Shown here piece after piece: positions 4,230 to 59,745 of a stretch of DNA of 64,000 nt (positions are counted from its first letter, which is position 1; each line of letters starts with the position of its first letter). The notes beneath the pieces were generated by a model. That model ran no database searches, had not been told where the DNA came from, and saw only the letters and a program-made list of their open reading frames with translations. The translations under genes were made by a program, and so were the position numbers. Origin of the DNA: Patescibacteria group bacterium (lineage in GTDB: Bacteria; Patescibacteriota; JAQUNI01); NCBI GenBank assembly GCA_028717685.1, contig JAQUNI010000001.1, positions 143,451 through 207,450 on the forward strand, written 5' to 3'.

Positions 4230-4670
4230 ATGGCAAAAAGACGAAAAATAGAGATATTATTACTGGCGGCTGCAATAATAGGGATATGGGTGTTTAGTCT
4301 TTACCCCGATCCACCCATAAGAAAGCTATCTTACCAAGAAAAAAGATTCGGCATGATCTTAACAGGAAAGAAATATGTGGACTGCCGAAGTAAGCTACAC
4401 ATCACCTATAAAGATTGGGGGGCAGATGGCAATCTGGATGAGGCGGAAAGAAACAAAATCATCAACGGCAATCTAGTAAAGGAAAAGGTCATATTCACCG
4501 AGACGCAAAGTGAGGCTGAAAAAGGAAACGCGGATGTTGGGGAATTTAACCATTTGGGGAATTTTGTCCCTAAGGATCCTCATAAACGCTATGTCTGGAA
4601 CGAATCACCAGAAGGGCAAACATGGCAAGAAAAGTTTGAAAAATTATTAGAAGATTATAATCGACAATAG
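4230..4670 (+). CDS. Hypothetical membrane-anchored protein (146 aa)
   Basis: Has an N-terminal TM helix (IEILLLAAAIIGIWVFSLY). A GGGAGG Shine-Dalgarno sits 12 nt upstream. It is plus-strand, antisense to the surrounding dcw genes. Confidence 0.5.
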   Translation: MAKRRKIEILLLAAAIIGIWVFSLYPDPPIRKLSYQEKRFGMILTGKKYVDCRSKLHITYKDWGADGNLDEAERNKIINGNLVKEKVIFTETQSEAEKGNADVGEFNHLGNFVPKDPHKRYVWNESPEGQTWQEKFEKLLEDYNRQ

Positions 4671-4680
4671 GAGGGACAGA

Positions 4681-5283
4681 ATGCAAAAATGGTTGTTGAT
4701 TCTTTGCTTTGCAGCCGTAGTCATGTTCTGCTTTAAGTTGAACACAGCAATTCAAGAAGAGGAGTTCCGATCGCGCAATCTCCTCAATAAAATGCTGGAT
4801 TTGACAGAAGACGCATCGCGTTATGTCAAACCGACAGAGGGAGATTGGAAATATTTTTCTGATCTCGGCTGGGCATTTATGCCGACTGACGGCAAGAACT
4901 GGGCGTATTGGCGGGACAAGCAAGAAAAGGCGCAATTTTTCACCCTCCTTGACCTTGCTCTGTACAAAAATCAGAACAATTTTTATCTACGCCCTTTCCA
5001 ATATCGCAAGGCATATGCCTTCAATCCCGTAAGTATTGATCGAAAAGAGATTCAGAAAGTTGATAATATTCAAAATGAATATGGGAGAATTTGGATAGAA
5101 GTTCAAGAGCCAGGCAGACTGGTTTTCATTGGTCTCACCAAACCTTTAAAATTCCGTCAACCGCGCAAACTCCATTTGGAGATATCAAATCATTATCTTA
5201 TAGAACGCACAAAAGAATCCGGTGCTTTTTACTGGAAGCCAGTAGGTAAATTAAGTACTAAAACTGAGGCAGAAATTCAATGA
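4681..5283 (+). CDS. Hypothetical secreted protein (200 aa)
   Basis: Has a signal-peptide-like N-terminus (MQKWLLILCFAAVVMFCF). An AGGAGG Shine-Dalgarno sits 8 nt upstream. It is followed by a rho-independent terminator. Confidence 0.55.
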   Translation: MQKWLLILCFAAVVMFCFKLNTAIQEEEFRSRNLLNKMLDLTEDASRYVKPTEGDWKYFSDLGWAFMPTDGKNWAYWRDKQEKAQFFTLLDLALYKNQNNFYLRPFQYRKAYAFNPVSIDRKEIQKVDNIQNEYGRIWIEVQEPGRLVFIGLTKPLKFRQPRKLHLEISNHYLIERTKESGAFYWKPVGKLSTKTEAEIQ

Positions 5284-5290
5284 CTTACAA

Positions 5291-5318
5291 CGCGAGTGTT
5301 CCATCACTCGCTTTTTTT
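5291..5318 (+). terminator. Rho-independent terminator after the plus-strand gene pair
   Basis: A cgcgagtg-ttcca-tcactcgc hairpin followed by TTTTTTT. Confidence 0.6.
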
Positions 5319-5409
5319 ATCCTGCATCTTTTTGAATAATACCAGCCAGCCCAGGTTAAAGGACAGGGTGGATGAATCTGACTACCCTGTCTGACGAAAG
5401 GTGTGGGAT

Positions 5410-6504
5410 TTATTTTTCCAAAATCTCGGAAGCGATCTTTCGAGCCGCATCAAACTTAGCTAAACCTTTAGCTTTCTTTCTCATTGTTTCAAGCTGATTG
5501 GGATTTTTAAATAAACTTGTAATCAAACTAATCAATTTCCGCGAAGTTAAATCTTTTTGTTCTAAAATAATACTCGCCCCTCTTTTTTCAAAAATCTTAG
5601 CATTAGCGAGCTGGTGATCAGAAGCAGCAGACGGCAAAGGGATTAAAATTGACGGCTTAGCGCAAGCCGCAATCTCCGCCAAAGAATTAGCACCGGCGCG
5701 GGAGATGATAAGATCAGCAATAGAATAAGCCAAAGCTATTTTCTCCCCATCTAAATAAGAATAAGACCGATAGTCCCTCATTTTTCCCTTTGCTGGTTCA
5801 AGTCTCTGACTTGAACCGGATTGTACCCCTGTCAAATGAACAATCTGATATCCCTTTAACTTTCCCAATAATTTCCGAATTAAATCGTTAATAAACCGCG
5901 CGCCTTGGCTGCCGCCCATCGCCAAAATAGTTGGCTTGTCTTTCGACAAATGAAAAAAATCGCGCGCCTTTACAGGGTCACCCTTCAAAATTTCCTGCCG
6001 CACAGGATTGCCAGTAAAAATATATTTACCCTGTAAAGACTTGGCAGATAGCTTCTCCGCAGAATGCGCATTAAATCCCAATAAAACTTTACTCGCCAAG
6101 TGCGCCGCGATTCTATTTGCAAGCCCTGGCACCGCATCAGATTCATGGACAATAATTTTTTTATGCAAAATCCAAGCGGCGATTACGACGGGTAGACTCA
6201 CATAACCACCCTTACTAAAAATCACATTGGGCTTAAATCCCAGAATCAAGAAAAAACTTTGAAAAATCCCCGCCGGAATCTTGAAAAAATCAATCAAATT
6301 CCAAAAAGAAAAATAACGCCTGAACTTGCCACAGGCGATTTTTTGAAAAGGGATATGATTTTCTCTCGCTGCTCGCTCCTCGGGATGGTCATCTCCCAGC
6401 CAAAACAATTTCAAATCTTTCCTTTGTCTCACGAGTTCCCGAACCACAGCGACAATAGGAATTGTATGACCGCCCGTACCGCCGCCAGTAAGAAGAATAC
6501 GCAT
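5410..6504 (-). CDS. murG: Undecaprenyldiphospho-muramoylpentapeptide beta-N-acetylglucosaminyltransferase
   Basis: 364 aa. Starts MRILLTGGGTGGHTIPIVAV, with a GT28 N-terminal and C-terminal fold. Adjacent to ftsW. Confidence 0.92.
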   Translation of the reverse strand: MRILLTGGGTGGHTIPIVAVVRELVRQRKDLKLFWLGDDHPEERAARENHIPFQKIACGKFRRYFSFWNLIDFFKIPAGIFQSFFLILGFKPNVIFSKGGYVSLPVVIAAWILHKKIIVHESDAVPGLANRIAAHLASKVLLGFNAHSAEKLSAKSLQGKYIFTGNPVRQEILKGDPVKARDFFHLSKDKPTILAMGGSQGARFINDLIRKLLGKLKGYQIVHLTGVQSGSSQRLEPAKGKMRDYRSYSYLDGEKIALAYSIADLIISRAGANSLAEIAACAKPSILIPLPSAASDHQLANAKIFEKRGASIILEQKDLTSRKLISLITSLFKNPNQLETMRKKAKGLAKFDAARKIASEILEK

Positions 6505-6588
6505 TGATAACGAATTACGAATTTCGAATCACGAATTACGGAAAACCAATTTATAACCGTGATTCGTAATTCTTAATTCGTGAATCGA
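6505..6588. repeat. ATTCGTAATTCG-type heptamer and inverted repeats in the murG-ftsW spacer
   Basis: cgaattacgaatttcgaatcacgaattacg ... gtgattcgtaattcttaattcgtgaatcg. This is the same motif family as the in-frame repeats in atpB and the giant gene. Confidence 0.55.
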
Positions 6589-7680
6589 CTACACTGTCTG
6601 TTTTGAGATATTTGTCAAAATCCCTACCGCGACCAAAGAAATCACCATAGCAGATCCGCCATAACTAATCAAGGGCAAAGGAACCCCCGTTAAAGGGATT
6701 AAACCACTTAAAGCCAGAATATTCATAAAAGCCTGAAAACAAAGCCAAGAAGTGATCCCGCCAGCAAGCAACCGACCAAAGCTATCAGGACTCCCACGCG
6801 CAATCTTAAAACCTTGGTAAGTTAAAAAAGAAAAAATAAACACTAAAAAGGAAACCCTGAGGAAGCCCAGCTCCTCACAGATGACCGCAAAAATAGAATC
6901 TCCGGCGACCTCGGGTAAATAACTATATTTCTGTCTAGACTGGCCAAAACCCAAACCCCATAACCCTCCCGAACCTTCCGCAATTAGAGCTTGATTTAAA
7001 TGGTAGCCAATCCCCTGGGGATCCGTTTCGGGATTGCGGAAAACAACAAAACGATTCATCCTATAAGGCGCAATCACAATCAGAAGCCAAAAAGTTAAAG
7101 CCAAGATACCGCCAATCATCGCTAAATGAGAGAAGCGGGCGCCGGCTAGATAGAAAACAATCACAGAGGTGAGTAAAATAATAGATAAAGTGCCTAGGTC
7201 TGGTTGCAACACAATTAAAAAACTCACCACCCCCAAAATAGCTAAAAAGGGCAGAAAACCATATTGGAAATGGGGGACCTGCTCGCGTTTTTTTGAAAGC
7301 CAAGTAGCCAGATAGATGACAAAGGTGAGTTTAAGTAATTCTGTGGGTTGAAAAGAGAAATGACCGGCTCCAATCCAGCGCCGCGCTCCCTTAAAACCCA
7401 ATCCGATTCCAGGAATAAACACTAAAATTAAAAGGATCAAAGAAATAATTAAAGCGAGAAAAGCCCATTTTTGCCACTTGTGATAATCAATTTTCGCAAA
7501 GATGAGCCAAGCGATAAAACCTAAAAGCGCACCAAAAAAAAATTGGTGGCGCAGATAATAAGCATTGTTGCCGAATCTTTCATAAGACAAAACAGAGCTT
7601 GCGGAACCAATCATCACCAGTCCAAAAATCACCAAGGCGAAAACAGTAATAATCAAGGAATAATTCGGTTTGTGCATCAA
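6589..7680 (-). CDS. ftsW: SEDS-family peptidoglycan glycosyltransferase FtsW/RodA
   Basis: 363 aa, polytopic membrane protein with an FtsW/RodA C-terminal signature (GIPLPLISYGGSAMV). Located upstream of murG in the dcw order. Confidence 0.85.
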   Translation of the reverse strand: MMHKPNYSLIITVFALVIFGLVMIGSASSVLSYERFGNNAYYLRHQFFFGALLGFIAWLIFAKIDYHKWQKWAFLALIISLILLILVFIPGIGLGFKGARRWIGAGHFSFQPTELLKLTFVIYLATWLSKKREQVPHFQYGFLPFLAILGVVSFLIVLQPDLGTLSIILLTSVIVFYLAGARFSHLAMIGGILALTFWLLIVIAPYRMNRFVVFRNPETDPQGIGYHLNQALIAEGSGGLWGLGFGQSRQKYSYLPEVAGDSIFAVICEELGFLRVSFLVFIFSFLTYQGFKIARGSPDSFGRLLAGGITSWLCFQAFMNILALSGLIPLTGVPLPLISYGGSAMVISLVAVGILTNISKQTV

Positions 7681-7822: not shown

Positions 7823-7890
7823 TGAATTTTTAACTTGAAACTCTTCTTCTATAATAAAAATGAGCCACTTAACTATTCCGTCTATATCCC

Positions 7891-8859
7891 TCATTTCTCT
7901 ATTTCCTTCCTCGTCAACAACCCTGATTGCGCCCCGTAGTCTTTGAGCACGCTGGCGCCATTTTTCACTCCCCACAAAAGCGCTGTCCTTATGTCTTTAC
8001 CCAAAGCAATAGCTCCCAAAAAGGCGGCAGAAAAGGCATCGCCAGCGCCCGTCGTATCCGCAACCTTACTCGCTTTTATCGCCTCTTGAAAGTTTAGTTC
8101 TTTACCATCATAAGCCGATGCTCCTCTGGCCCCTTCTGTGATAACCACGATCTTGGGACCCCAAGAAAAAAGTTCGCGCGCAATATTACCAGCAAGCAAA
8201 GAAAAATTTTTATTCTTGCTTAAAACAAGCTCAATCGCCTCATCCAAAGTTAAAATTAAAATTTCCACATTACGCAAGATCTCTCGCAACCCTTCATACC
8301 CTGAAGACAATTGCGCCAACCCAGGATTAAAGTAAATTTTCATTTTCTTCTTTGCCGCCAAATCTGTTATATCCCTCAACAACTTTAACCATTCGCCAGT
8401 GAGGGAAGAAATGTAGATCCATTTGCTCGCAAATCTTTTACGTCCCAGATTTAAATTATTGCTTGCATTTTTGTCCACAAACACAACATGATCTCCGCCG
8501 CCCTTCTCATCTATAATAACCACGGAGAGATCAGTCCTCTCTTTTCTATCCCAAGAAATGAGCGTCCCGGAAACTTTCGCGGCTTTAAGATTTTTCTTAA
8601 TCTTCAGACCATCCAAGTCGCGGCCCAAGTTCACCCGGCAAGCTACGCGCAAACCTAATTTTGCTAATCCTACCGCCACATTGCAAGCTCCACCTCCAAA
8701 ATTATCATAAGTATGCAGAACCGGAATTTTGGCGCCATATTCAAAACCCAAAAGCTTATTCGCCAATGGATCATGATTGGTGGTAATTAGCTTGCCTGCT
8801 GCGGTGCGGATCACGATATCGCGGGTTGAGCCGCCAAAAGTTACCACATCGTAGTGCAT
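7891..8859 (-). CDS. PfkB-family carbohydrate or nucleoside kinase (ribokinase-like)
   Basis: 322 aa. Has an N-terminal GG motif and the C-terminal TTGAGDAFSAAFL anion-hole motif characteristic of PfkB kinases. Confidence 0.8.
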   Translation of the reverse strand: MHYDVVTFGGSTRDIVIRTAAGKLITTNHDPLANKLLGFEYGAKIPVLHTYDNFGGGACNVAVGLAKLGLRVACRVNLGRDLDGLKIKKNLKAAKVSGTLISWDRKERTDLSVVIIDEKGGGDHVVFVDKNASNNLNLGRKRFASKWIYISSLTGEWLKLLRDITDLAAKKKMKIYFNPGLAQLSSGYEGLREILRNVEILILTLDEAIELVLSKNKNFSLLAGNIARELFSWGPKIVVITEGARGASAYDGKELNFQEAIKASKVADTTGAGDAFSAAFLGAIALGKDIRTALLWGVKNGASVLKDYGAQSGLLTRKEIEK

Positions 8860-26464: not shown

Positions 26465-29400
26465 TTAATCTTCGCCTTTCTTTTCTCCCCCTTCTTTGAT
26501 TATCCACCAATTAAATTCCGTATCTTCTGACACTTCTTCCAGAGCAGAAACGGTAAAACTTTTCTCGCCCACTTCAGACAAATAAATAAATGTGGAAGAT
26601 AGTGGGGTTATACCAATAAATGAATCTTTGGTTACTTCCTCATTCTCAAAAACTGCGTCTTTTTTTCCTGCTTCAATAACACCTGTGCCTGTGATTATAT
26701 TGGTTATCTTACCTACAACCTCTAAATCACCTTTCACCACCACTTTCGGTTCGGGCACAGTGTCATTTGCTTCCCCGGGATTCAATTCCAGAATGCCAGT
26801 TTCCGAGAGAATCCTGCCCGAAACAAGCTTTAGCTCCCCTTTCACCTTTACATTCCCGTCCTTATCTACCGCGAAGTTCTCGCTATTAATCTCTAAGCCT
26901 GTGGCAGCATCCAGAACAAGGTATTTGTTGGGGTCGCCGATTATTACTTTGTCCTCCACAATCTTTACAATCTGCTGTAAATTCTGTGTTTCTTCTTCTA
27001 GTTCTTGAATCCTGGCGGTATTCGCTTGGTTGGATTCCATTACTGTTAAAATAGAGGCGCTTAAAGTGTTTAATTGATTGGAGACATTCTCCAGATTGCT
27101 CAAACTGTCTACTAGGGTTTGGAGGGTGCTTTGCAGTGATTCTAGATCAACTTGCTCGGAAGAAGCCCCCTCTACCATTTGTGCTGGCGCTGTGTCAGCA
27201 TCATTTTCCGTAATTTGTGATTCGTAATTCGTAATTCGGGTCTCCAGATCCTGAATCCTTGATTCTTGATCTTTGATTCTTGATTCTAAAGACAGAATTC
27301 CTGATTCCTGATTCCCTATCCCTAATTCCAAGCCAGTGAGACGCGAGGTCGTGTCGCCCGCGGAAATACCAAGTTCATTCTGCACTAATTGCATATTATC
27401 ATCTATGACCGATAGCTTTTGCTGCTGCTCCTTGAGCACCTCATTCTGATAAAGGGAGATCCGTTCATATTTGATTGCGTCAGGTCTGCCTTGCTCGTCA
27501 TATATTACAAGGTTAGAAAGGCCTAAAGCGTCAAATTCTTCGGCAATAAAGCCGACATCCCTCTTTCCTGTTGCTTTATCAATAAAGGAGGTAGGTCTTG
27601 CTTCTAGAATCTTGGTAAAGTCATCTTGCAGGGTCTGCACATCATCTTTGTATCGCAAAGAGGAAGTAGAACGGTAGACACTGCCCGTGGTCGTATCAAT
27701 AAACATATTGGCGGCGGAAGCGGAAGTGTCTATATTTGCAATGACAAACTTGGTGCCAGGGGCGCTCGTGCCGATACCGATCGCGCCCGTGGAGGTAATC
27801 ACGAAGGCGGGCGTTGCCCCACCTAAAGTAGCAGCAGTTTCAATCTTGAATTTATCGCTATCGCTGTCATCAACTCCCACGGAGAATTTAGTAGAATCAG
27901 CAATTTTAAAGTCTAAAATAGGATCACCAGAAGCTTTATTTAAAGAAAGAAGATTGTCTGGCGTGCTCGTCCCGATGCCGACGTTTCCGCTCATTATGGA
28001 CATCCCGCCTTGATAGATATGATTAGTTGACACAACATTCATTTCAGATTTGCCAGAGGTCATTACTTGGTGTGTGCCACCACTCCAATTCCAAGACACG
28101 GCGACAAACAAACCATTGCCATAGGTTACTGACATCCACCAATTTGATTCGGGCGCGGTTCTAGTTGTCCAGGTGATGCCATCGGGTGAAGTCATTACTC
28201 GGTTAGTGTCAGTTAGACCAACGGCGACAAACAAACCATTGCCATAGGTTACTGAATTCCAAGAATCTGCTACTGCGGTTCTAGCTGTCCAGGTGATACC
28301 ATCAGGCGAAGTCATTACTCGGTGTGTGCCACTGTGACCAACTGCCACAAACAAACCATTGCCATAAGTTACTGCATACCACGTATTTGCTTCGGCTGCG
28401 GTTCTAGCTGTCCAGGTAATGCCATCGGGCGAAGTCATTACCCGGTTGGTGCCATTATAAGCGACGGCGACAAACAAACCATTGCCATAGGTTACTGAAT
28501 ACCACGAATTTGCTTCGGGCGCGGTTCGGGCTGTCCAAGTGATGCCGTCAGGCGAAGTCATTACTCGGTGTGTGCCGCTGTAAGCAACTGCGACAAACAA
28601 GCCATTGCCATAAGTTACTCCTTCCCATTTATTTGCTTCGGCCGCGGTTCGGGCTGTCCAAGTGATGCCATCAGGAGAAGTCATTACTCGGTGTGTGCCA
28701 GTTTCAGCGACTGCCACGAATAAACCATTGCCATAAGTGACCCAATTCCACCCATTTGCTTCGGCTGCAGTTCGGGCTGTCCAGGTGATGCCATCGGGCG
28801 AAGTCATTACTCGGTTGGTGCCATTATAAGAGACGGCGACAAACAAGCCATTGCCATAAGCTACCCCATTCCACGTATTTGCTTCGGTCGCGGTTCGGGC
28901 TATCCAGGAAGTTCCTTTGGATATGATGTTGCCAACAACTTCTAACTTCTCGCCTGGTGTTGTCGTCCCCACCCCAAGCCTGTTATTCGTGTCATCCCAG
29001 TAAAAATTAGCGTTATCTTGAGCCAGCGCGCCTGCGGCATCAGTGAAAACCACCGAGCCTTGGGTAAAACCAGGGGTAATGGTGCCGATAACATTGCCAT
29101 AGATTGTGCCGTCAACCTCTAAAACATCCTCTACATAGAGGTCTCCGTCTCCTGTGGCATAATTCACTGTTCCGCCATTGCCAATAAAGACGTTGCGGTT
29201 AAACCAAGCGTCTTGATGGACGCGCAGAGTGCCTGCTGTTTCCACATCCCCTGTTTTGCCGTTAACAATAAATTTGTCATCGTCTATGTAGATTCCGCCA
29301 TTTGCCTCTAGAATGCCGGTGAGCTTGGTCTGACCATCTACGGTAAGATTATTGTAAAGATGGGCATCTTTAATCACAATCAGTTCTTGACCGACTTTTA

Positions 29401-30409
29401 CATTACCTGCTACATCAAGCTTATGCTGGGGGTATTTAGTGCCAATGCCTACTTGATCATTAGTAGTATCAACATAGAGAGCCTTTGTTCCGACCGTGAA
29501 GTTGCCCCCAACATCCACACTCTTTTGCAATTCAGTTGACCCTTTAACTTCAATACCACTACCAAAATATACTTTCCCAAGCAGGCTCAAGTCCTGTGAT
29601 GTGCTGGCACCGTTAGTGGTAACATTCTGTAAATTGATATTATTGGAAGAGGCATTAGAGACTATCTTGGGGATAGAGTCGCCTAAAACAATCTCTGAAG
29701 ATGGATGGGATTCCGATGTTTGTTCCGTAGGGGAAGAGGCTTGCGGTTTAATCTTGCTGTTTAAGGCTAGATCGTCTGTTTGAAGATTATGGATTATGGA
29801 TCCTGTATTTTGGTCAACATTTTTTAGTAAACTACTAAATACTTTTAATGGGAAATATCCTCTTTCCGCAGAAACACCTCTCACAAAAACCAGAGTATTG
29901 GCGAAAAGGACTATGAGGATCAAAAGAGTTAAGAAAACGGGTCTAAAACGAGGAGGCGGAACAACAAATCTGGACCAAAAGGACAACGATGGTTTTAGGT
30001 TTTTCAGGATTTTATTCTTGAAAACGGATTTGAAGCGGAGCAATGTGGAAGATGATTCAGATTGGGGGGATAACAATAATTTCAGGTCTTCAAAAACTTT
30101 GAAGCTCTTGATTGGCGCCTTTACCCTGTTAGACAGTAACCCCCTTAAAGCCTCTGGTCTCTTACGGAATAAACATCTAATGGAGCCAGGGCAGTTTGTT
30201 AGCCCCGTTAGAAATAAATTTCTAAACGGGGTTAGAGAACAAGGTTCTCTAACGGGGTTTACTGACCCTAACGGTTTACAGGTGAAACCGAGAGCAAGAC
30301 ATCGGGAGCGTATCTTAAACATAAGATGAGAATATTTTTTATGAATACAAAACCCACCCCTTGAAAACAGAGAAATAATTTTTGAAACTATAGGGCTTTT
30401 TGTTTGCAT
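26465..30409 (-). CDS. Giant cell-surface protein. Layout: N-terminal signal anchor, ~7 Asp-box-like beta-propeller repeats, GIGT tail-fibre-like motifs, Peptidase_S74-like intramolecular chaperone domain, C-terminal coiled coil
   Basis: 1314-aa ORF. It contains repeats of ~40 aa (NRVMTSPDGITWTARTAAEANxWxxVTYGNGLFVAV), GIGT motifs (VGIGTKYPQHKLDVAGNV, IGIGTSAPGTKFVIA), a chaperone-like segment (SLRYKDDVQTL...GFIAEEFDALGLSNLVIYDEQG) and heptad-rich ESRI repeats. A family B repeat at 30203-30258 lies inside the 5' end of the ORF, so the true start is probably downstream, for example TTG 29987 or TTG 29923 just before the VFLTLLILIVLFANTLVFV anchor. Confidence 0.7.
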   Translation of the reverse strand: MQTKSPIVSKIISLFSRGGFCIHKKYSHLMFKIRSRCLALGFTCKPLGSVNPVREPCSLTPFRNLFLTGLTNCPGSIRCLFRKRPEALRGLLSNRVKAPIKSFKVFEDLKLLLSPQSESSSTLLRFKSVFKNKILKNLKPSLSFWSRFVVPPPRFRPVFLTLLILIVLFANTLVFVRGVSAERGYFPLKVFSSLLKNVDQNTGSIIHNLQTDDLALNSKIKPQASSPTEQTSESHPSSEIVLGDSIPKIVSNASSNNINLQNVTTNGASTSQDLSLLGKVYFGSGIEVKGSTELQKSVDVGGNFTVGTKALYVDTTNDQVGIGTKYPQHKLDVAGNVKVGQELIVIKDAHLYNNLTVDGQTKLTGILEANGGIYIDDDKFIVNGKTGDVETAGTLRVHQDAWFNRNVFIGNGGTVNYATGDGDLYVEDVLEVDGTIYGNVIGTITPGFTQGSVVFTDAAGALAQDNANFYWDDTNNRLGVGTTTPGEKLEVVGNIISKGTSWIARTATEANTWNGVAYGNGLFVAVSYNGTNRVMTSPDGITWTARTAAEANGWNWVTYGNGLFVAVAETGTHRVMTSPDGITWTARTAAEANKWEGVTYGNGLFVAVAYSGTHRVMTSPDGITWTARTAPEANSWYSVTYGNGLFVAVAYNGTNRVMTSPDGITWTARTAAEANTWYAVTYGNGLFVAVGHSGTHRVMTSPDGITWTARTAVADSWNSVTYGNGLFVAVGLTDTNRVMTSPDGITWTTRTAPESNWWMSVTYGNGLFVAVSWNWSGGTHQVMTSGKSEMNVVSTNHIYQGGMSIMSGNVGIGTSTPDNLLSLNKASGDPILDFKIADSTKFSVGVDDSDSDKFKIETAATLGGATPAFVITSTGAIGIGTSAPGTKFVIANIDTSASAANMFIDTTTGSVYRSTSSLRYKDDVQTLQDDFTKILEARPTSFIDKATGKRDVGFIAEEFDALGLSNLVIYDEQGRPDAIKYERISLYQNEVLKEQQQKLSVIDDNMQLVQNELGISAGDTTSRLTGLELGIGNQESGILSLESRIKDQESRIQDLETRITNYESQITENDADTAPAQMVEGASSEQVDLESLQSTLQTLVDSLSNLENVSNQLNTLSASILTVMESNQANTARIQELEEETQNLQQIVKIVEDKVIIGDPNKYLVLDAATGLEINSENFAVDKDGNVKVKGELKLVSGRILSETGILELNPGEANDTVPEPKVVVKGDLEVVGKITNIITGTGVIEAGKKDAVFENEEVTKDSFIGITPLSSTFIYLSEVGEKSFTVSALEEVSEDTEFNWWIIKEGGEKKGED
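30203..30258. repeat. Family B palindromic unit (CCCCGTTAGAAAT-aaa-ATTTCTAAACGGGG + TTAGAGAAC-aa-GGTTCTCTAACGGGG)
   Basis: Two adjacent perfect hairpins. Copies or relatives lie at 48381-48427, 8997-9105, 21436-21470 and 56204-56240. Confidence 0.65.
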
Positions 30410-30581
30410 TTTGGGAGATATGAATTCCGTATCGGTTTCTAGCTTTTATACTAAAAAATTGAGAGAGTAAGTCTCTACTGAAAATCTCCTAGTAGATTTA
30501 CTGGTTTAAGTACATTACTATTATATAATACCTCCCCCCACTCGTTTTTACAAGAATGTTATCCACAAAGTAATATAAAAG

Positions 30582-30613
30582 ACTAACCCTTAAGGGCGAG
30601 GGTTAGTCTTCCA
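30582..30613 (-). terminator. 32-bp direct repeat copy 2 (same hairpin), downstream of the FG-GAP/L,D-transpeptidase gene
   Basis: actaacccttaagggcgagggttagtcttcca is identical to 26316-26347. On the minus strand the hairpin is followed by tcttttat. Confidence 0.5.
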
Positions 30614-30868
30614 CCGCGTTTTAGTTTGAATTTTTTAGGCGCGGACTGCCTCTCATTTTTAGGCAGCGACGCCTGTTAAATTTTACGGTGGCGGAGAAAC
30701 CACGTCTTTCGCGTTCCCGACGTCACCGTAAAATTATTCTATGCACTCTTTCATCTTAATAAATACATCAAATTTTTGTTTCTTAATTTTTAATTTTTAA
30801 CTAATTTTTATTTACTTAATTTTTATTGTTATTATAAATAAAACAATAATTCAATAACTAAATAAAAA

Positions 30869-32455
30869 TTAGTCTTGAACAATTACCGGCGTTCCTATTG
30901 CCGCCCAATCGTAAAGCTGTTTAGCCGGTCCCACACCGAGGCGCACGCAGCCATGAGAAACGCGCACACCTAAATGATTAGCCCCTTCCTTATAACCGCC
31001 CGGCCATTCGGGCAATTCATGAATGCCATGACCTTTAGTAGTAAAAGCCATCCAATAGGGCATATATAACCCATATTTAGAAGACCAGGCGCGCGGATTT
31101 TTACTTAAAATGTGAAAATTACCCAAGGGAGTGCCCATACCAGGCCGACCTGTAGATACCTTAGTGTCTAAAAATATTTTCTCTCCTTCATAAGCCTTCA
31201 AATTTTGCTCTGAAATGTCAATCACAATCTTCTTTAAACCATTGAAATTGTAGTTCAAAGCAGGCAAGATAATAATTTCCGCAATATGATCGCCATCTAA
31301 ATCTGCCGCCGCCAGGTTCACCCCGCCATTAAAATTCTTTTCAAAAGGATAATAACTGTAACCAGTCTGGTTCATCGCTTGGGAGCTAACGCCACTCACC
31401 AGACTTGGTTCCTTAAGATTACCTCCCACCCCCTCCTTTCTCCCCGCTCCGGGCAAGGGGAGAGCCGCTCCCATTCTCTCTTTTTCAGAATCAGTATCTT
31501 CTTGCGCGATTTTCACCCCGCCGATATTATAAGGGGAACTCTTCTGAATCTCGCCCAAGTGATTGAACGCCCGCACATGCGGCGCGCCGCCCGGACCAGC
31601 GCCAGCCAAAATCTCACTCTTGCCGTCAAAATTCAAATCCGCCGCGGCGATATCCACGCCGCCCTTGAAACCTTGATCAAAGGCGATGAAGCTGGATTCT
31701 AAAAGGCCATTACTCTTATATACTTTAATCTGGGCTTTATCCTGACGCGCGGCAGAAACGATAATCTCCGGAAGTTTATCTCCGTCCACATCCGCCGCGG
31801 CGATATCCACGCCACCCTTGAAGTCGCGCGGAAAAGGATAAAGGACAAAATCAGTCCGCGTACCATTTCCTTTAAAAACACGCACCTCGGAGCGCGTACC
31901 CTGCCCTCGCGAAACCAAAATTTCCGCATTATGATCGCCGTCTAAATCCGCAAGGGCAATGTGCACGCCGCCCCGAAACGCCGCTGGTTCTCCAAAAAAA
32001 TCCGCTAAAACAGTTTTGTTTAGGTCTGCCTTGTAAACCTTGATATGGGCGCTCTCGCGGGAAGCAACCGCCACCGCAATTTCATCCTTTTGGTCGCCAT
32101 TAACATCCCCACAAGCCACATCAACGCCTCCCAAAAATTCTGCGTCAAAAGGATAGATTACATAATTGGTCTTTTTGCCTCGATAGTCATAAACGCGCAC
32201 TTCGCTTCTCCGACCCGGTCCTGAACCAATCACAATTTCCTTATGACCATCACCATTTAGATCCCCCACGCAAACCGAAACCCCGCCGCGGAAATCATTT
32301 TCAAATAAATTAAAATCCTGGCCTTGTTTAAGGTCCACAGCTTTGAAAATACGACCGAGACCAAAATAATCGCGAGCCTCTACACTTTTTAATGGCCCAA
32401 AAATCATTCCTGACATTAAAACTGCCGTAAAAATTATTGTTTTTGTTTTTGTCAT
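30869..32455 (-). CDS. Secreted FG-GAP repeat beta-propeller protein fused to a C-terminal L,D-transpeptidase (YkuD) catalytic domain
   Basis: 528 aa with a signal peptide. Six or more FG-GAP-like repeats are present (GDLNGDGHKEIVIGSG, ADLDGDHNAEILVS, ADVDGDKLPEIIVSA, ADLNFDGKSEILAGAG, ADLDGDHIAEIIIL). The C-terminal HGIHELP...GVRVSHGCVRL contains the LDT active-site His and Cys motif. Confidence 0.8.
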   Translation of the reverse strand: MTKTKTIIFTAVLMSGMIFGPLKSVEARDYFGLGRIFKAVDLKQGQDFNLFENDFRGGVSVCVGDLNGDGHKEIVIGSGPGRRSEVRVYDYRGKKTNYVIYPFDAEFLGGVDVACGDVNGDQKDEIAVAVASRESAHIKVYKADLNKTVLADFFGEPAAFRGGVHIALADLDGDHNAEILVSRGQGTRSEVRVFKGNGTRTDFVLYPFPRDFKGGVDIAAADVDGDKLPEIIVSAARQDKAQIKVYKSNGLLESSFIAFDQGFKGGVDIAAADLNFDGKSEILAGAGPGGAPHVRAFNHLGEIQKSSPYNIGGVKIAQEDTDSEKERMGAALPLPGAGRKEGVGGNLKEPSLVSGVSSQAMNQTGYSYYPFEKNFNGGVNLAAADLDGDHIAEIIILPALNYNFNGLKKIVIDISEQNLKAYEGEKIFLDTKVSTGRPGMGTPLGNFHILSKNPRAWSSKYGLYMPYWMAFTTKGHGIHELPEWPGGYKEGANHLGVRVSHGCVRLGVGPAKQLYDWAAIGTPVIVQD

Positions 32456-32624
32456 TTTTATTTTTATTTGCCTCGCCGTAGTCAGCCAGAGGCGGACGAA
32501 GCTCGCCTTCGCTTAAAGCTTTAGGCGGAGCAAGGCGGGTTTTACCTCGCCGAAGCACACAAAGTGCGTAGACGGGTTTAGTCCTCTTTTAGAAAGCTAT
32601 TTTGGCTTTCTTTGAGTAAGACTT

Positions 32625-32663
32625 TAAAAAGCTCGCCGGGGATAAAACCCCTTAAGCGAGCTC
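32625..32663 (-). terminator. Hairpin plus T-tract on the minus strand (agctcgcc-GGGGataaaaCCCC-ttaa-gcgagct)
   Basis: The minus strand reads agagctcgcttaaggggttttatccccggcgagct followed by ttttt. There is no protein gene immediately upstream on the minus strand. Confidence 0.4.
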
Positions 32664-32879
32664 TTTGTACTTGACTGCTTTTATTATATCATATTATGGA
32701 TTTTGAGTCAATAGTTTTCTTGCTAAAATTCAAAAAATGTATTTTAATTAGATTATCACATCAATCATAAATTCCACCTTAAAGTACGAATCGCGCTTCA
32801 AAAGAAAATTTTGGGATATCTTTTAGCTTTGAATCATCGTTCTTTACCCAAACTTTATATATAGTAATCAGGAGCTAAT

Positions 32880-33344
32880 TTGATGGAAATTGGATATGAA
32901 GGAGGAAGGATAAATATGTTAAATTCTGAAGTCGCTGAAAGGTTATTGTTTATTGGTATGAATGAAGAATTAAAAAAGAAGGTGTTTTTACTAAAAAACC
33001 TTCTGGAGGAAATTGCTCAAAAGCTGGGAGGAGAGGTATTTCCAGCAATCCAAATAGTGGAAGAGAAAAAGTTTCTTGATTACGAAATTAGGATTAAAGC
33101 GAGAACAGCGCTTTTTTCACGGCTCATTACTATTGCCAGGGCATATTTTCTGCATGGTTTTAGCGGTGACGATGGAAAATGGACCGACCTTAGAGTCGCT
33201 TTCAGAAAAGATAGGTGCCCTCAATCCATCTTTTCACAGCTAGAGCTAGAAATGAATAAAGAAACTGTGGATCGGCACCCCATCAAGGTAGAATATGTTG
33301 ACTACAAAAAAGACCAAAAGGAAGGCTTTTTTAGAAAACTTTAA
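32880..33344 (+). CDS. Hypothetical protein (154 aa)
   Basis: A plus-strand ORF with a Shine-Dalgarno (aggagctaatttgATG), followed by a bidirectional terminator. Confidence 0.5.
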   Translation: MMEIGYEGGRINMLNSEVAERLLFIGMNEELKKKVFLLKNLLEEIAQKLGGEVFPAIQIVEEKKFLDYEIRIKARTALFSRLITIARAYFLHGFSGDDGKWTDLRVAFRKDRCPQSIFSQLELEMNKETVDRHPIKVEYVDYKKDQKEGFFRKL

Positions 33345-33432
33345 ATTATATTTATTCTACCTCTGCGGCGCGAAGCTCATTTTACCCATAAGGGAAGAAC
33401 TTTACTTCCCTTACCTATCCTTACTATAAATA

Positions 33433-33466
33433 AAAAGCCCCTCTTGATTTCCAGGGCTTTTTTTAT
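33433..33466. terminator. Bidirectional rho-independent terminator
   Basis: An aagccc-ctcttgatttcc-agggctt hairpin is flanked by aaaaa on one side and ttttttt on the other. It serves the plus-strand gene ending at 33344 and the minus-strand ATPase operon ending at 33478. Confidence 0.6.
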
Positions 33467-33477: not shown

Positions 33478-33780
33478 TTAATAACCTAACAATAATTGAA
33501 TCCTCTCCCCCTCTCCTTCCAAAACCTGCCCCTCTCTTTCCACGCGCGTCGTTCCTCGCATATGCATTGGCTTCATATTTTCAAAATGCAAATCAATAAA
33601 TAAATTTCCATCCTGATCTAATGAAGGATGGGCGTGGAAGCGCGGGTAAAAACCAGCGCCAAGCCGGCGCACATATCCTAATTCTCTGCTTCTTGGATCA
33701 CGCAGGGGCTGATAGCCCAAACGGCGCATAAGGTTAGGAATGTTTTCTCTAATTTTTTCTTTAGATATTTCAATACGCAT
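33478..33780 (-). CDS. Hypothetical 100-aa protein encoded at the distal end of the V/A-ATPase operon
   Basis: ORF 10 nt downstream of the atpD stop. No recognisable family. Confidence 0.4.
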   Translation of the reverse strand: MRIEISKEKIRENIPNLMRRLGYQPLRDPRSRELGYVRRLGAGFYPRFHAHPSLDQDGNLFIDLHFENMKPMHMRGTTRVEREGQVLEGEGERIQLLLGY

Positions 33781-35987: not shown

Positions 35988-37739
35988 TTACACCACTTTC
36001 TCTATCTTCTCCCAAACCTTTTTATACTCTGCCTCTATTTTATCTTCGGGAATAAATTTGAGTCGGGCAATATCTTCAATAATTTCCTGCTTAAATAATG
36101 CCTTCAAGTCCAACTCGTTAACTTTGGAAAGCGCTAAATCGTAGAAATCAATAATAATCTTTAACATACCGTATTGTTTAGATAAGGAGGTATAGGTATC
36201 AATTTCATCAAAGGCATTCTGATGCAAAAAGTCTTCCCGAATCATCCGGGCAACGCGCAAGATTAATTGGTCCCGCGAACCTAAAGCGTCAAAACCGACC
36301 AAACGCACAATCTCTTCCAGATTGGCTTCTTCCTGCAAAATTTCCATTGCTCTTTGACGATACTGGTTAAAATCCGCGGCGACATTATTTTTAAAATACT
36401 CCTCTAAATTTTCAGTGTATAAAGAATAGCTGGTCAGCCAATTAATCGCTGGGAAATGGCGCTTGTAGGCGAGCGCTGAATCCAAAGCCCAAAAAACCTT
36501 GGTAACCCGCAAAGTGTTTTGCGTCACCGGTTCAGAAAAATCGCCGCCCGGCGGCGAGACCGCGCCAATCACGGACAAAGAGCCAACGCGCTTCTCCGAT
36601 CCTAAACACTCCACGCGGCCAGCGCGTTCATAAAACGCCGCCGTCCGCGTGCCGAGATACGCAGGATAACCTTCTTCACCGGGCATCTCCTCCAGCCGTC
36701 CTGACATTTCCCGCAAAGCCTCGGCCCAGCGCGAAGTGGAATCCGCGGTAAGCGCGACTTTGTAACCCATATCACGATAATATTCAGCGATGGTAATCCC
36801 GGTGTAAATAGACGCTTCGCGCGCCGCCACAGGCATATTAGAAGTATTGGCAATCAAAATCGTGCGCTCCATTAATTGTCTTCCCGATTTCGGATCTTTC
36901 AATTCCGGAAATTCAATCAAAACATCGGTCATCTCATTCCCCCGCTCCCCGCAGCCGATAAAAACGATAATCTCCGCATCTGCCCATTTAGCTAACTGAT
37001 GCTGAACCACAGTCTTCCCGGACCCAAAAGGACCCGGCACGCAAGCTGTGCCGCCTTGGGCAAGCGGGAAAAAGGTATCAATCACTCTCTGTCCTGAAGC
37101 CATTAAAGTATCAATGGGTAAATTTTGTTTCACCGGCCGCGGAATCCGAATCGGCCAACGCTGCAACATTGTAATCTCTTGTTCGCCTTGCGCTGTTTTA
37201 ATCTTCGCGACAATATCTTCCACTTTGGATTGACCAGCCTTTATTGCCGTGATTTTCCCCCGCGCACCCTGAGGCACCATAATTTTATGCATAATCAAGG
37301 AGGTTTCTTGAACCGTACCTAGAATATCGCCTTCCTTCACAACATCCCCTTCCTTTTTTACAGGCTTAAAATCCCATTCCTTTTCGCGGTCAATCCCCGG
37401 TACTTCCATACCCCTCGCAATAAAAGCGCCAGACTTGGCAAAAATCAAATCTAATGGTCTTTGAATGCCGTCATAGATGGCTTTAATCATTCCCGGTCCC
37501 AGTTCCACAGACAAAGGTCTGCCAGTTGTCTCCACTAACTCTCCCGGTCCAACACCGGCGGTGTCCTCATATACTTGAATGGAGGCTTGGTCTTGGTTTA
37601 AGCCAATAATCTCGCCGATTAATTTTTTCTCCCCCACTTTGACCACATCAAACATCCGCGCATTAGGGATGCCTTCGGCGATCACAAGCGGACCGGAAAC
37701 TTTAACAATGATTCCCTGTTTATTTTCTAAATTAGACAT
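35988..37739 (-). CDS. atpA: V/A-type ATP synthase subunit A (catalytic)
   Basis: 583 aa. Contains the Walker A motif GPFGSGKT and the non-homologous region typical of V/A-type A subunits. Confidence 0.92.
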
Positions 37740-53886: not shown

Positions 53887-54744
53887 CTAAATTAGTTCCA
53901 CTCCTTTCACTTCCCATCCTTCCTTGCCATCTTCTATGATCTCCTTAAAGATAAAGGAGTCAGTCGACTTGGTGGTACGAAATCCACCATTTGGAGGCAG
54001 AGAAGAATAATGTATTTTACAGCACCATAACTCTCCGCCTTGACGCACTACTGCGCAGCCGACACCTTTACTTTCAGTGAAATAGTCAACTATTCCAAAA
54101 CCATCGTTGGTTAACTTTTCACTATAGTTATAGTGGGGAATGTGACGATCGTCATTTACGCTACCCTTGTGGTCAACCACTTCGTCCCACGTAAGGTGAG
54201 TATATTCAGGAGCCTCATCAAGAACCTGATATTTGAACCTGTCAATTATAACTTGATCAAGACCAACCCAAGGCGCAAAGTAAGGGTTAACTATTGCCGG
54301 TTTTCCATTTTGTTTTACGACCTCCCCACTATAGAGAAGTTGATAACGGAGATAAATACGATAGTCCTGGGACGCAAGGGATACTTGAAAAAATTGGAAT
54401 CCTCCCTTGCCAAGTTTTGCAACCACATATATCTGATTCTTGGGCCACTTGGTAAAGCCTTTGGGAGGCTTACCAATAGTAGACACTGGAAAACGATATG
54501 TGATAGAGTTACCTTCCTGTAATCCTTGGAGAAGTCCAAATGTTGGCGCTTCCTCCTCTTCATCCCTATGTGCGCAGAAGCTTTCCAGGTGATATTTATG
54601 TGGCACTCTGATAACCAGGTCAAGTTTTGTATTAGGCGGTAAAGTACCTATAAGACCTTGCCTGCCAATACTCATATCTTGACCATTTCTCTCTACCGCG
54701 ATCTCCGCATCAGCAACACCGATTCTGAAATTCAACATATTCAT
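53887..54744 (-). CDS. Hypothetical protein (285 aa) with a near-consensus sigma-70 promoter and strong Shine-Dalgarno
   Basis: ataggaggtttctaATG. A promoter TTGACT-17-TATAAT lies about 95 nt upstream. Confidence 0.5.
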   Translation of the reverse strand: MNMLNFRIGVADAEIAVERNGQDMSIGRQGLIGTLPPNTKLDLVIRVPHKYHLESFCAHRDEEEEAPTFGLLQGLQEGNSITYRFPVSTIGKPPKGFTKWPKNQIYVVAKLGKGGFQFFQVSLASQDYRIYLRYQLLYSGEVVKQNGKPAIVNPYFAPWVGLDQVIIDRFKYQVLDEAPEYTHLTWDEVVDHKGSVNDDRHIPHYNYSEKLTNDGFGIVDYFTESKGVGCAVVRQGGELWCCKIHYSSLPPNGGFRTTKSTDSFIFKEIIEDGKEGWEVKGVELI

Positions 54745-56334: not shown

Positions 56335-57621
56335 TTATTTTCTAGACCATTCTTCGTTCTGCCTCACGAGCAGTTCCCGCGCGCGCAAGGGTTCAAACAT
56401 TATGTCTTTAACAATCTTTTCCATCCGCATTGCCTGCGAACCCTTTACGAGAATAATATCATTAGGTTTTAAAATATTCTCAATATCCTCCAAAACCTCG
56501 TCAGTGTAATTATATTCAACGATTCTCTCTTCCGTCATTCCAGCCCGCCGCGCTTCATCCGAAGCAAAATTCGCTCGGTCGCCGACCGTGATTAAAAGGT
56601 CAGCCATTGAACGGGCAACCCGCCCCACCTCTCTGTGACCTCTTTCTGTTTCTGTCCCCAGCTCCAGCATATCGCCCAAAATTGCCACTCTTCTCCTTCC
56701 GGCGGGCGCAACTTCCGCTAACGCGCGCAAAGCGGCGATCATAGAGACAGGCGCGGCATTATAAGTATCGTCAATAATTAAACTATTTTTGATCCCGGGG
56801 AGCATGCGCATTCTGCCTGCTGGCGCTTGAAAATGTTTCAGGCTTTCCGAAATCTTAATCAAATTCATTTTAAAATAAATCCCAACGGCGGCGGCGGCGA
56901 GCGCGGCATAAATCTGATGCCGACCCAAAACTTTTGGCAAATGCACCGGCACACTATTGCCTTTGTAGTTTAATTTGAAGCCTAACCCCCCTTGATTGGA
57001 GATGACACGAATATCTGAAGCCACTATTTCTTCTCGCAAAGGACTTTCCTCATCCTTTAACAGGCCATATTTTAGAATCGGCGACCGACCCTTCATTTCC
57101 GCCACGCGGGGATCATCTCGGTTCAAAACAACAAGACCATCAGCCGCGACTCCCTTGACTAACTTTTCCTTCTCGTCCCGAATCGCTTCTTGCGACGCGA
57201 AAAATTCCAGATGTGAAGGACCAACGGCAGTAACTACGGCGACGTCAGGCCGCGCGATATTCACCAAATAACCAATATCTCCAGGTCGATCCGCGGCCAT
57301 TTCTAAAACTAAAATTTCCGGATATTTTTTGGTCTTGATTAAAACGAGCCGCAAAGCCTGCCCCAAAACATTAAGCCAAGCGCCGATGTTCCTCGCGGGC
57401 GCTTTCACGCCGATAATGGCGAATGGCACTCCCAATTCATTATTATAATTCTCCGCGCTTTTGCGTACCCGTCCAGGAAAGGCGGCGGCAAGGACTGTAT
57501 AGATAGCGTCTTTGGTGGATGTTTTTCCCACGCTGCCAGTCACCGCCACGATCTTGGGGCGGTGTTTTTTCAAGATTTTCCGAGCAGATAAAGCGAGAAT
57601 TTTTTGAAGGAAAGTTTTCAT
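56335..57621 (-). CDS. murF: UDP-N-acetylmuramoyl-tripeptide--D-alanyl-D-alanine ligase
   Basis: 428 aa with a Mur ligase P-loop (VTGSVGKTSTKD) and C-terminal domain. Confidence 0.9.
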   Translation of the reverse strand: MKTFLQKILALSARKILKKHRPKIVAVTGSVGKTSTKDAIYTVLAAAFPGRVRKSAENYNNELGVPFAIIGVKAPARNIGAWLNVLGQALRLVLIKTKKYPEILVLEMAADRPGDIGYLVNIARPDVAVVTAVGPSHLEFFASQEAIRDEKEKLVKGVAADGLVVLNRDDPRVAEMKGRSPILKYGLLKDEESPLREEIVASDIRVISNQGGLGFKLNYKGNSVPVHLPKVLGRHQIYAALAAAAVGIYFKMNLIKISESLKHFQAPAGRMRMLPGIKNSLIIDDTYNAAPVSMIAALRALAEVAPAGRRRVAILGDMLELGTETERGHREVGRVARSMADLLITVGDRANFASDEARRAGMTEERIVEYNYTDEVLEDIENILKPNDIILVKGSQAMRMEKIVKDIMFEPLRARELLVRQNEEWSRK

Positions 57622-57782
57622 AACTCTAAATTTTTATTTCTTAATTTTTAATTTTTAATTTTTAACTAATATTTATTTGCTTATTGATTTATTGCATTGC
57701 CAGGGTCAAATAATTCAATAAGACATTAAAACAATAAAAATCAGCTAAAAATTAAGAAATAAAAATCAAAAATTAAGCATTC
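57622..57782. repeat. Family A inverted-repeat element, copy 7
   Basis: The left arm is aaatttttatttcttaatttttaatttttaatttttaac. The right arm is gctaaaaattaagaaataaaaatcaaaaattaag. Confidence 0.55.
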
Positions 57783-59740: not shown

Positions 59741-59745
59741 GCATT

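Follow-up and report, generated by a model that had tools for sequence, protein, structure and literature searches.

An L,D-transpeptidase domain fused to a predicted six-bladed FG-GAP propeller in a Patescibacteria genome

A gene in the genome of a Patescibacteria group bacterium encodes a protein in which a signal peptide is followed by an FG-GAP beta-propeller and a C-terminal YkuD-type L,D-transpeptidase (LDT) catalytic domain. The gene lies in a stretch of 64,000 nucleotides (contig JAQUNI010000001.1 of assembly GCA_028717685.1, positions 143,451 to 207,450), which is here termed the window and to which coordinates refer unless another locus is named. The order of the three parts had been proposed in an earlier sequence-only reading, and it is borne out by Pfam matches, by sequence and fold matches to structures in the PDB and by two confident AlphaFold models. 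Full-length collinear homology (signal peptide, six repeats and YkuD domain, about 470 aa) places the protein in an automatically annotated family of the Candidate Phyla Radiation (CPR)/Patescibacteria. It is rather probable that the protein is a housekeeping peptidoglycan LDT of a Doudnabacteria-related CPR bacterium which acts on the cell's own wall, with the propeller as a tether and spacer.

LDTs set beta-lactam susceptibility and wall architecture in many bacteria, and their non-catalytic modules decide the site of action. The CPR/Patescibacteria represent a large share of bacterial diversity. To our knowledge, there is no experimental knowledge of their wall chemistry, and no reports of CPR muropeptides were found in the literature searched. 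Several CPR lineages fit an LDT with what is predicted to be a six-bladed FG-GAP propeller instead of the usual immunoglobulin (Ig)-like or PG_binding_4 modules. By itself, the finding is a domain-architecture variant already present in databases; it provides useful context and a pointer to the organization of CPR wall enzymes, and will not surprise a specialist.

Organization of the gene and the protein

Loci from genome and metagenome scans are designated by L-numbers and database protein homologues by P-numbers; L001 is a locus of a Candidatus Doudnabacteria metagenome-assembled genome (MAG). Conservation counts are from a family alignment of 76 homologous sequences, and the genome scan employed a 16-sequence alignment. 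The open reading frame list shows a single, uninterrupted frame exactly at 30869-32455 on the minus strand, where the sequence-only reading had placed it, and the repeat and SHGCVRL motifs pointed out there are also correct. The protein has four parts: a Sec signal peptide, six FG-GAP repeats, an insert of about 60 aa and the YkuD domain. All Pfam matches are far above gathering thresholds. No artefact is apparent, and a 90 %-identical copy is found in the same context in the Doudnabacteria MAG. No paralogues were found within the 64-kb window. The features are as follows.

30869-32455, minus strand: propeller-LDT fusion open reading frame, 528 aa plus TAA stop (open reading frame list, Pfam, 90 %-identical L001 orthologue)
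32375-32455, minus strand: signal peptide, residues 1-27 (MTKTKTIIFTAVLMSGMIFGPLKSVEA, followed by RD), predicted signal peptidase I site after Ala27 (hydrophobic core, residues at -1 and -3)
32297-32374, minus strand: residues 28-53, whose two N-terminal strands complete blade 6 as its strands 3 and 4 ('velcro' closure; DSSP strands 33-38 and 44-49)
31544-32296, minus strand: FG-GAP repeats 1-5, residues 54-304, with Ca-loops 65-73, 117-125, 170-178, 222-230 and 273-281 (Pfam, motif scan, conserved columns, DSSP)
31361-31543, minus strand: disordered insert of residues 305-365, restricted to its own clade, between strands 3 and 4 of blade 5 (model confidence, alignment)
31241-31360, minus strand: strand 4 of blade 5 and FG-GAP repeat 6, residues 366-405, with Ca-loop 385-393 and the short linker LPALNYNFN (Pfam, model, motif scan)
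30872-31240, minus strand: YkuD L,D-transpeptidase domain, residues 406-528 (Pfam, phmmer, Foldseek, invariant residues)
31019-31021 and 30947-30958, minus strand: codons of His479 and of S500-H501-G502-C503 in the YkuD domain

The signal peptide, which had been claimed from the sequence, is well founded. Its n-region is rich in K, its hydrophobic core comprises 16 residues and its predicted cleavage site reads V-E-A; residues 2-18 form a helix in the AlphaFold model. Alanine is found at -1 in 66 of the 76 homologues, with small residues at -3, and a lipobox-like motif is present in just one of the 76. Signal peptidase I would therefore be expected to cleave after Ala27.

The FG-GAP propeller

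The protein matches Pfam FG-GAP (PF01839) with 81.9 bits (cut-off 22.1) and FG-GAP_3 (PF13517) with 89.5 bits (cut-off 26.9), in six stretches with each model. At least six calcium-type repeats had been counted in the sequence-only reading. A motif scan finds exactly six, starting at residues 65, 117, 170, 222, 273 and 385, and the D-x-[D/N]-x-D-x-x-x-E loop is intact in all of them. The D and E positions of the loops are among the best-conserved columns of the family alignment, and the family consensus also has six repeats. To judge from these sequences, the propeller is probably stabilised by Ca2+. The possibility that these are VCBS or other non-propeller repeats does not hold: the modelled fold is that of a propeller, and the former 'VCBS' model PF13517 is now FG-GAP_3 in Pfam.

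The AlphaFold model, based on the 76-sequence alignment, has a predicted local distance difference test score (pLDDT) of 88.2 and a predicted template modelling score (pTM) of 0.77. For P0007, an insert-free homologue 64 % identical to the window protein, the values are 93.2 and 0.81. Both models show 24 propeller strands in the order 2 + 5x4 + 2. Since 24 strands make six blades of four, the propeller as modelled is six-bladed, with the last blade built from both termini, and the strand count implies that the ring would be closed. Each of repeats 1-5 has four strands by DSSP. The closing strands 33-38 and 44-49 have pLDDT values of 89-94, and the same pattern is seen in P0007. About nine residues link the last propeller strand (393-398) to the first YkuD strand (408-413). 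This short linker, together with the two pTM values, is a hint, although not proof, of a fixed orientation between propeller and catalytic domain.

Foldseek finds matches of the propeller fold to the propellers of integrin alpha-V and of the lectins PVL and AAL-2, and by phmmer against the PDB residues 51-129 match integrin alpha-V propellers (E ~1e-6). The earlier description of an integrin-alpha-like propeller thus stands with respect to repeats and fold, but not to blade number, which is six in the models versus seven in integrins.

The insert in blade 5, which was not mentioned in the sequence-only reading, is of low complexity and rich in Gly, Ser, Lys and Glu. Its pLDDT is below 50 at residues 309-362. 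Among the homologues it is found only in the closest relatives, P0002-P0004, where its length varies. Compared with L001, the insert shows 67 % identity with insertions and deletions, and the remainder of the protein 92-95 %.

The YkuD catalytic domain

Residues 409-526 match Pfam YkuD (PF03734) with 74.6 bits (cut-off 23.4), over profile positions 3-146 of 146. The two Pfam models put forward in the earlier reading, PF01839 and PF03734, are therefore both matched above their thresholds. All 76 homologues have H479, S500, H501, G502 and C503 unchanged, in agreement with the proposed C-terminal YkuD domain with an HG...SHGCVRL motif; the objection raised beforehand, a lack of the conserved His and Cys, thus falls away.

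By phmmer against the PDB, residues ~408-527 match 5bmq and the Enterococcus faecium Ldtfm chains 3zg4, 6fj1 and 1zat. The Ldtfm chains (E 9e-10 to 5e-9) are the best characterised relatives by sequence. H479 aligns with the His of the GIHD motif of Ldtfm, and S500-H501-G502-C503-V-R505 with SHGCIN. At the level of predicted structure, Foldseek matches the domain to 4k73, 5bmq, 1y7m and 3zg4, all with probability 1.00; for 5bmq the root-mean-square deviation is 1.9 A over 124 columns. The pLDDT is 94-97 over most of the domain.

Distribution of the fusion

The fusion had been termed unusual. This is so when it is set against model organisms, but within the CPR/Patescibacteria it constitutes a large recurrent family, and FG-GAP and YkuD are found together in 85 of the best 120 database clusters at 90 % identity. 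Members are typically 460-480 aa in length and, where named, are called 'L,D-transpeptidase family protein [Patescibacteria group bacterium]'. A profile search, exhaustive over 1.84 billion representatives at 50 % identity, gave single-stretch matches over all 472 profile positions (~425-500 aa) for ~56 of the best 150 representatives. The same fusion is also present in public CPR genomes, where it had been suggested that it be sought: tblastn finds it at full length in Doudna-, Kerfeld-, Kuenen-, Falkow- and Buchananbacteria, as well as in MAGs of Parcubacteria and of unclassified Patescibacteria. Some third-party-annotation MAG titles give Gammaproteobacteria, and such labels are used with caution; at least one of the loci so labelled, L009, shares secDF-sigma-factor synteny with the CPR loci L002 and L012. 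The fusion is thus abundant and automatically annotated in databases, each of its two domains belongs to a textbook family, and accessory modules are familiar from other LDTs. Short variants of ~333-369 aa (L010 2884-7569, L013, L016, L018) have two recognisable FG-GAP repeats.

Exchange of accessory modules

In the same catalytic subfamily, Big_5 or PG_binding_4 can be present in the slot that the propeller occupies here (loci L015, L021, L023, L048, L052 and L058, in Moranbacteria-, Parcubacteria- and Saccharibacteria-labelled MAGs). The catalytic domains of these enzymes are 46-68 % identical to that of the window protein over residues ~396-527, and they share with it the YGLYMPYWM and RVSHGCVRL blocks and the junction motif (GKYIDI.LS.Q.L). 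They differ in having two or three Ig-like Big_5 domains, or PG_binding_4, instead of the propeller. The Big_5 enzymes resemble LdtMt2 of Mycobacterium tuberculosis, in which Ig-like domains precede the YkuD catalytic domain. PG_binding_4 ('PG4') also accompanies VanW-type LDTs (PMC10980060). The presence of these modules on sister enzymes indicates that the propeller stands where LDTs classically carry an accessory module.

Conversely, the propeller is found on other domains. These are M23 peptidase (P0031), M14 peptidase (P0080), polysaccharide deacetylase (P0095) and subtilase; P0049 has YkuD followed by FG-GAP. In L004, from Kerfeldbacteria, a gene for an M23-FG-GAP protein (L004 1774-3294) adjoins the LDT gene, and the two propellers are 42 % identical over 301 aa. 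The M23, M14 and deacetylase proteins have the same propeller module as the LDT and, like it, are all predicted envelope enzymes. They differ in their catalytic domains and, for the M23 proteins, in the opposite domain order. Among them, only L004 carries a CPR label; P0031, P0080 and P0095 are metagenomic.

Proposed function and alternatives

If the protein is a housekeeping LDT, it would be exported by Sec and released by signal peptidase I after Ala27. By analogy with the family, Cys503, activated by His479, would attack the L-centre of a tetrapeptide stem, free the terminal D-Ala and form a thioester. The acyl group would then be passed to the side-chain amine of a neighbouring stem to give a 3-3 cross-link, as expected from the family, with Ldtfm as the closest characterised relative. 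Donors would be tetrapeptides from a DD-carboxypeptidase. The propeller, in place of Big_5 or PG_binding_4, would most likely retain or position a soluble enzyme at the wall of a cell without an outer membrane, and the ~9-residue linker would hold the active site at a fixed distance. The 60-residue disordered loop may be a fast-evolving, clade-specific decoration that is dispensable for the fold.

We favour a wall-directed accessory role of the propeller, in retention and positioning, because other modules can substitute for it, because the same propeller is found on other envelope enzymes, and because the genes tend to be found in envelope and housekeeping contexts. Seventeen propeller-LDT loci were compared with respect to neighbourhood. 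In four of them (L010, L013, L016 and L018, all short variants), the LDT gene is directly behind that of a Peptidase_S11 DD-carboxypeptidase, with a gap of 4 bp in L010. This adjacency bears on the question of donors, since a DD-carboxypeptidase makes the tetrapeptides that LDTs require. Five loci are immediately upstream of tsaB-mraZ-mraW, and five are in a secA/secDF neighbourhood. As to the organism itself, MurB, MurC, MurG, FtsW, an FtsI-type penicillin-binding protein (PBP), a Mur ligase and MraW are encoded in the window, from which it follows that the organism builds peptidoglycan.

Several points weigh against this interpretation. Over the 76 sequences, conservation in the propeller is confined to the structural F/GG/D/D/E/G positions; its surface has no residues kept throughout the family from which a ligand pocket could be named. 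The motif GGWxxxxH of a lectin-type sugar pocket is present in 0 of the 76 family members; GG is followed mostly by Val, Gly or Ala, and there is no Trp in the propeller of the window protein. The short variants have just two recognisable repeats, and the enzyme subfamily can therefore do without a closed ring. Within the window, no cell-wall gene adjoins the LDT gene. No description of an FG-GAP + L,D-transpeptidase or YkuD + beta-propeller architecture was found in the literature searched; the propeller as an LDT accessory module, and its six-blade form, appear to be undescribed. Lastly, YkuD-fold enzymes can be L,D-carboxypeptidases, as is Csd6, and the distinction lies in active-site loop geometry (PMC4599014).

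The last point leads to an unlikely, although the strongest, alternative, in which the YkuD domain is an L,D-carboxypeptidase or exchange enzyme that trims tetra- to tripeptides or swaps the terminal D-amino acid, and the propeller is again a wall tether. In Csd6, which has the YkuD fold, the acceptor path is closed by loops (PMC4599014). The long segment between His479 and Ser500 (LPEWPGGYKEGANHLGVRV) could shape access to the active site, and sequence alone does not separate the two activities. However, the best characterised sequence relatives, the Ldtfm chains, are true transpeptidases, and the Ldtfm alignment covers the same His-to-Cys segment at comparable length. The NCBIfam model of the L,D-carboxypeptidase ElsL (NF040925) gives 12.2 bits, compared with a cut-off of 270.

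It is improbable that the enzyme instead attaches a surface, pilus or S-layer protein to peptidoglycan, as Escherichia coli ErfK/YbiS/YcfS do with Lpp, with the propeller recruiting the substrate. Propellers are classic platforms for protein-protein interaction, some homologues are annotated 'lipoprotein-anchoring transpeptidase ErfK/SrfK', and a type II/IV secretion ATPase gene adjoins the members in L010, L013 and L016. The ErfK/SrfK names are automatic, however, and the NCBIfam equivalog models of the E. coli Lpp-anchoring enzymes (NF007612 and NF007563) give 13.7 and 12.6 bits versus cut-offs of 583 and 517. Moreover, no candidate substrate gene is conserved beside the LDT gene across lineages, and the propeller has no conserved surface to fit one fixed partner.

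A regulatory or protective propeller is also held to be improbable. It could, for instance, dock the LDT on PBPs or the divisome, or else protect the wall against hydrolases of other organisms, similarly to the FG-GAP-like inhibitors PliI and XAC2610. Five loci are at the head of a division and cell wall (dcw) cluster, and there are matches to PliI (PF16743; 22.8 versus 27 bits) and to the XAC2610 family (NF047539; 25.5 versus 35). But these matches are below the curated cut-offs, extend over one repeat-length stretch and probably reflect just the shared FG-GAP-like Ca motif. In addition, the propeller is also carried by hydrolases (M23, M14, deacetylase), which fits targeting better than an inhibitor.

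Very improbable is a symbiont-host interface, in which the propeller binds a host surface structure and the LDT cross-links or remodels host peptidoglycan: the protein is secreted, CPR bacteria are widely regarded as episymbionts, the propeller surface and disordered insert evolve fast and the downstream neighbour encodes a 1314-aa surface protein with a phage-protein-like stretch, but the synteny is stable and housekeeping (V/A-ATPase operon, aminoacyl-tRNA synthetase, secA/secDF, mraZ/mraW, DD-carboxypeptidase), the 1314-aa gene is absent from relatives and therefore not functionally linked, and other CPR lineages pair the same catalytic subfamily with ordinary PG_binding_4. The same slight chance is given to a more specific form of this idea: that the propeller is an unrecognised CPR surface-targeting module, that the LDT would stitch symbiont wall or protein covalently to host peptidoglycan at the contact zone, and that the fast-evolving surface and insert would set host specificity.

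To return to the housekeeping LDT with a wall-directed propeller: should the propeller prove to be wall-binding, it would represent a new class of cell-wall targeting module. A recombinant propeller would then be a probe for the study of CPR envelopes.

Gene neighbourhoods

Among genomes, the Doudnabacteria MAG (locus L001) matches best: the proteins are 90 % identical, and the flanks 89-95 % at the DNA level. The LDT gene appears to be its own transcription unit downstream of a V/A-ATPase operon and a conserved open reading frame of ~100 aa, and this order is kept down to 64 % LDT identity. In the 64 %-identical relative (a 707-kb contig), the V/A-ATPase genes, the ~100-aa frame and the LDT gene are followed, further on, by genes for an aminoacyl-tRNA synthetase, a tRNA-editing protein, ScpA, a GT4 glycosyltransferase and Wzy. 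The ~100-aa frame has no family match and may be an accessory gene of the V/A-ATPase operon in the LDT clade. Neighbouring features in the window are as follows.

33478-33780, minus strand: 100-aa open reading frame, flanked by V/A-ATPase subunit D and the LDT (58-68 % identical to its counterparts in L082 and L085)
26465-30409, minus strand: 1314-aa open reading frame directly downstream of the LDT, with some seven repeats of 'TSPDGITWTARTA.EAN.W..VTYGNGLFVAV' and, towards the C-terminus, a coiled-coil region
1378-7680, minus strand: ftsW, murG, murC, murB block
56335-61085, minus strand: mraW, FtsI-type PBP, Mur ligase block

The two dcw blocks are on the same strand, ~48 kb apart, and are separated by genes for glycolysis, glycosyltransferases, the V/A-ATPase and dnaK/dnaJ/hrcA. 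An incomplete local dcw cluster had been regarded as relevant to the fusion. It has no bearing on the LDT, as two blocks are present and both are more than 20 kb from the gene. A functional link between the LDT and dcw genes in the window is rejected for the same reason; such a link is seen only in other lineages.

The 1314-aa protein has weak matches to PHROG 'minor head protein' families (residues 836-1004) and to Pfam EPTP. A Peptidase_S74 chaperone domain at its C-terminus is not supported by Pfam. The GC content is 0.466 at 28-30 kb, compared with ~0.40 nearby. None of the relatives examined has the gene, and a functional link with the LDT is rejected on that account. At its site, L082 has a GFO_IDH_MocA gene and L085 two small open reading frames; the spot is a variable insertion site. 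The L001 frame at this site has an N-terminus that appears to start like an IS200/IS605 transposase.

Upstream of the LDT gene, a segment of ~700 bp (32737-33443) is absent from L001. It contains a 154-aa open reading frame (32880-33344, plus strand), antisense to the surrounding genes, which has no Pfam or PHROG match and is 60 % identical to a correspondingly placed 142-aa frame in L082-L084. In the window, the V/A-ATPase A subunit (35988-37739, minus strand) is 583 aa long and has no intein; in a related genome (L085/L086, 1470-4784) the subunit is 1104 aa and contains an intein (Intein_splicing and LAGLIDADG_3).

At other loci, a T2SSE-type ATPase comes after the short variants of L010, L013 and L016, together with a cNMP-binding/GAF protein in the case of L010 and L013. 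The SecD protein of L002 (8966-10648, plus strand), from a Patescibacteria MAG, has a PPIC-type peptidyl-prolyl isomerase (Rotamase_3, residues 146-236) inserted between its first-periplasmic and P1-head domains.

Putative promoter, leader sequences and putative terminator

Signals that may govern expression of the LDT gene, and related leaders at other loci, are as follows.

32683-32711, minus strand: promoter-like site TTGACT-17-TATAAT with an extended -10 TG (TATGATATAAT); 11 of 12 consensus matches
32626-32666, minus strand: leader hairpin AAAGAGCUCGC-loop-GCGAGCUUUUU, ~12 nt downstream of the predicted start of transcription and followed by a U-run (from the sequence)
32456-32711, minus strand: structured LDT 5' leader of ~220 nt; equivalents at L001 ~5775-6000, L082 ~990-1222 and L085 ~7880-8000
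30575-30614, minus strand: terminator-like hairpin with a 16-pair stem and T-rich tail, ~255 nt after the LDT stop (pattern match)
L090 4591-4628 (minus), L093 2555-2590 (plus) and L097 3955-3992 (minus): leaders of genes for CAP + Ig-like proteins
L002 5877-5939, L003 5875-5945, L007 4277-4336 and L004 ~165-215, all plus strand: leader of distant propeller-LDT genes

The promoter-like site is a candidate promoter by consensus match and conservation: L001 and L082 have the same two hexamers and TG. The exact sequence TATGATATAAT recurs at 54850 (minus strand), upstream of an unannotated 285-aa open reading frame (53887-54744) with no Pfam match, and this extended -10 may be a preferred promoter form in this genome. 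The leader has a minimum free energy z-score of -5.17, and its hairpin, which L001 also has, is kept in L082 and L085 with changes at the apex that are compensatory. Ahead of the LDT ATG there are four GGCGAG motifs, and the window leader has an extra segment of 39 nt relative to L001 and L082.

In a metagenome scan, the leader motif with a TATGATATAAT or TATGCTATAAT promoter was found to precede two gene families. One consists of propeller-LDT genes (L087, L094, L100 and L101). The other encodes secreted proteins with CAP (PF00188) and Ig-like (Big_13/Big_6) domains and a C-terminal transmembrane segment. From this pattern, envelope proteins of the clade would seem to share a cassette for expression or regulation. 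A second leader copy with the same promoter is found on the L001 contig (L091 2098-2133, plus strand); the locus ends before any open reading frame, and its upstream sequence resembles L093. A promoter-less match in L092, 115 nt upstream of the gene for a VanW + PG_binding_4 + G5 protein, may be due to chance.

The distant propeller-LDT genes of L002, L003, L004 and L007 share another leader, which consists of a promoter, a small hairpin, CAAAAACAAAAAC and a long hairpin. The long hairpin has a conserved base, GRCYRGAG...CTCTGGYC, and a distal stem that covaries, and its G-U wobbles pair only in the sense strand. A motif-and-pairing scan of 934 kb located this leader only in L002, L003 and L007, 33-56 nt upstream of the LDT ATG. 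The L004 hairpin was judged equivalent by eye and is outside the one-mismatch filter of the scan. Neither leader type has an Rfam match. The leaders could be 5' stabilisers, attenuators or small RNAs.

Comparison with characterised systems

The best non-integrin fold matches of the propeller are the fungal GlcNAc lectins PVL (2BWR), AAL-2 (4TQJ) and PAL (5MB5-type, 5MB4), with E-values of 2e-7 to 7e-7 and template modelling scores of 0.32-0.42. In lectins of the PVL/AAL-2 type, the FG-GAP-type propeller stands alone, has Ca2+ sites and is closed end to end (PMC4483166). They have seven blades, compared with the six predicted here. In each blade, the GlcNAc pocket is formed by Asn/Asp, then G-G-Trp, then His in the 4-to-1 connecting segment (PMC4483166). 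A GlcNAc lectin of this type, suggested by the fold match, is ruled out, as the pocket residues are absent family-wide.

The integrin alpha heads (alpha-V; 4UM9, 8TCF) resemble the propeller in having FG-GAP repeats, four-stranded blades and D-x-D/N-x-D-G-x-x-D/E loops. The integrin hairpin loops bind Ca2+; the loops of the window protein share the motif, and metal binding by them is predicted. Integrins differ in having seven blades, only some of which bind Ca2+, whereas the window protein is modelled with six, all carrying the motif. In addition, the window protein is bacterial and has no counterpart of the beta-subunit partner or of the thigh and calf domains.

With respect to the catalytic part, the closest parallel is the 3-3 cross-linker Ldtfm of E. 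faecium (1ZAT, 3ZG4, 6FJ1), which has the same YkuD domain and the same His...SHGC arrangement. Both proteins are predicted or known to be exported, in cells without an outer membrane, and both have a non-catalytic N-terminal module before the catalytic domain. Identity is 26-29 % over ~125 residues, and the accessory module of Ldtfm is a small mixed alpha/beta domain rather than a 380-residue propeller of six predicted blades. Ldtfm depends on tetrapeptide donors supplied by a DD-carboxypeptidase, and this dependence is paralleled by the S11-LDT gene pairs of L010, L013, L016 and L018.

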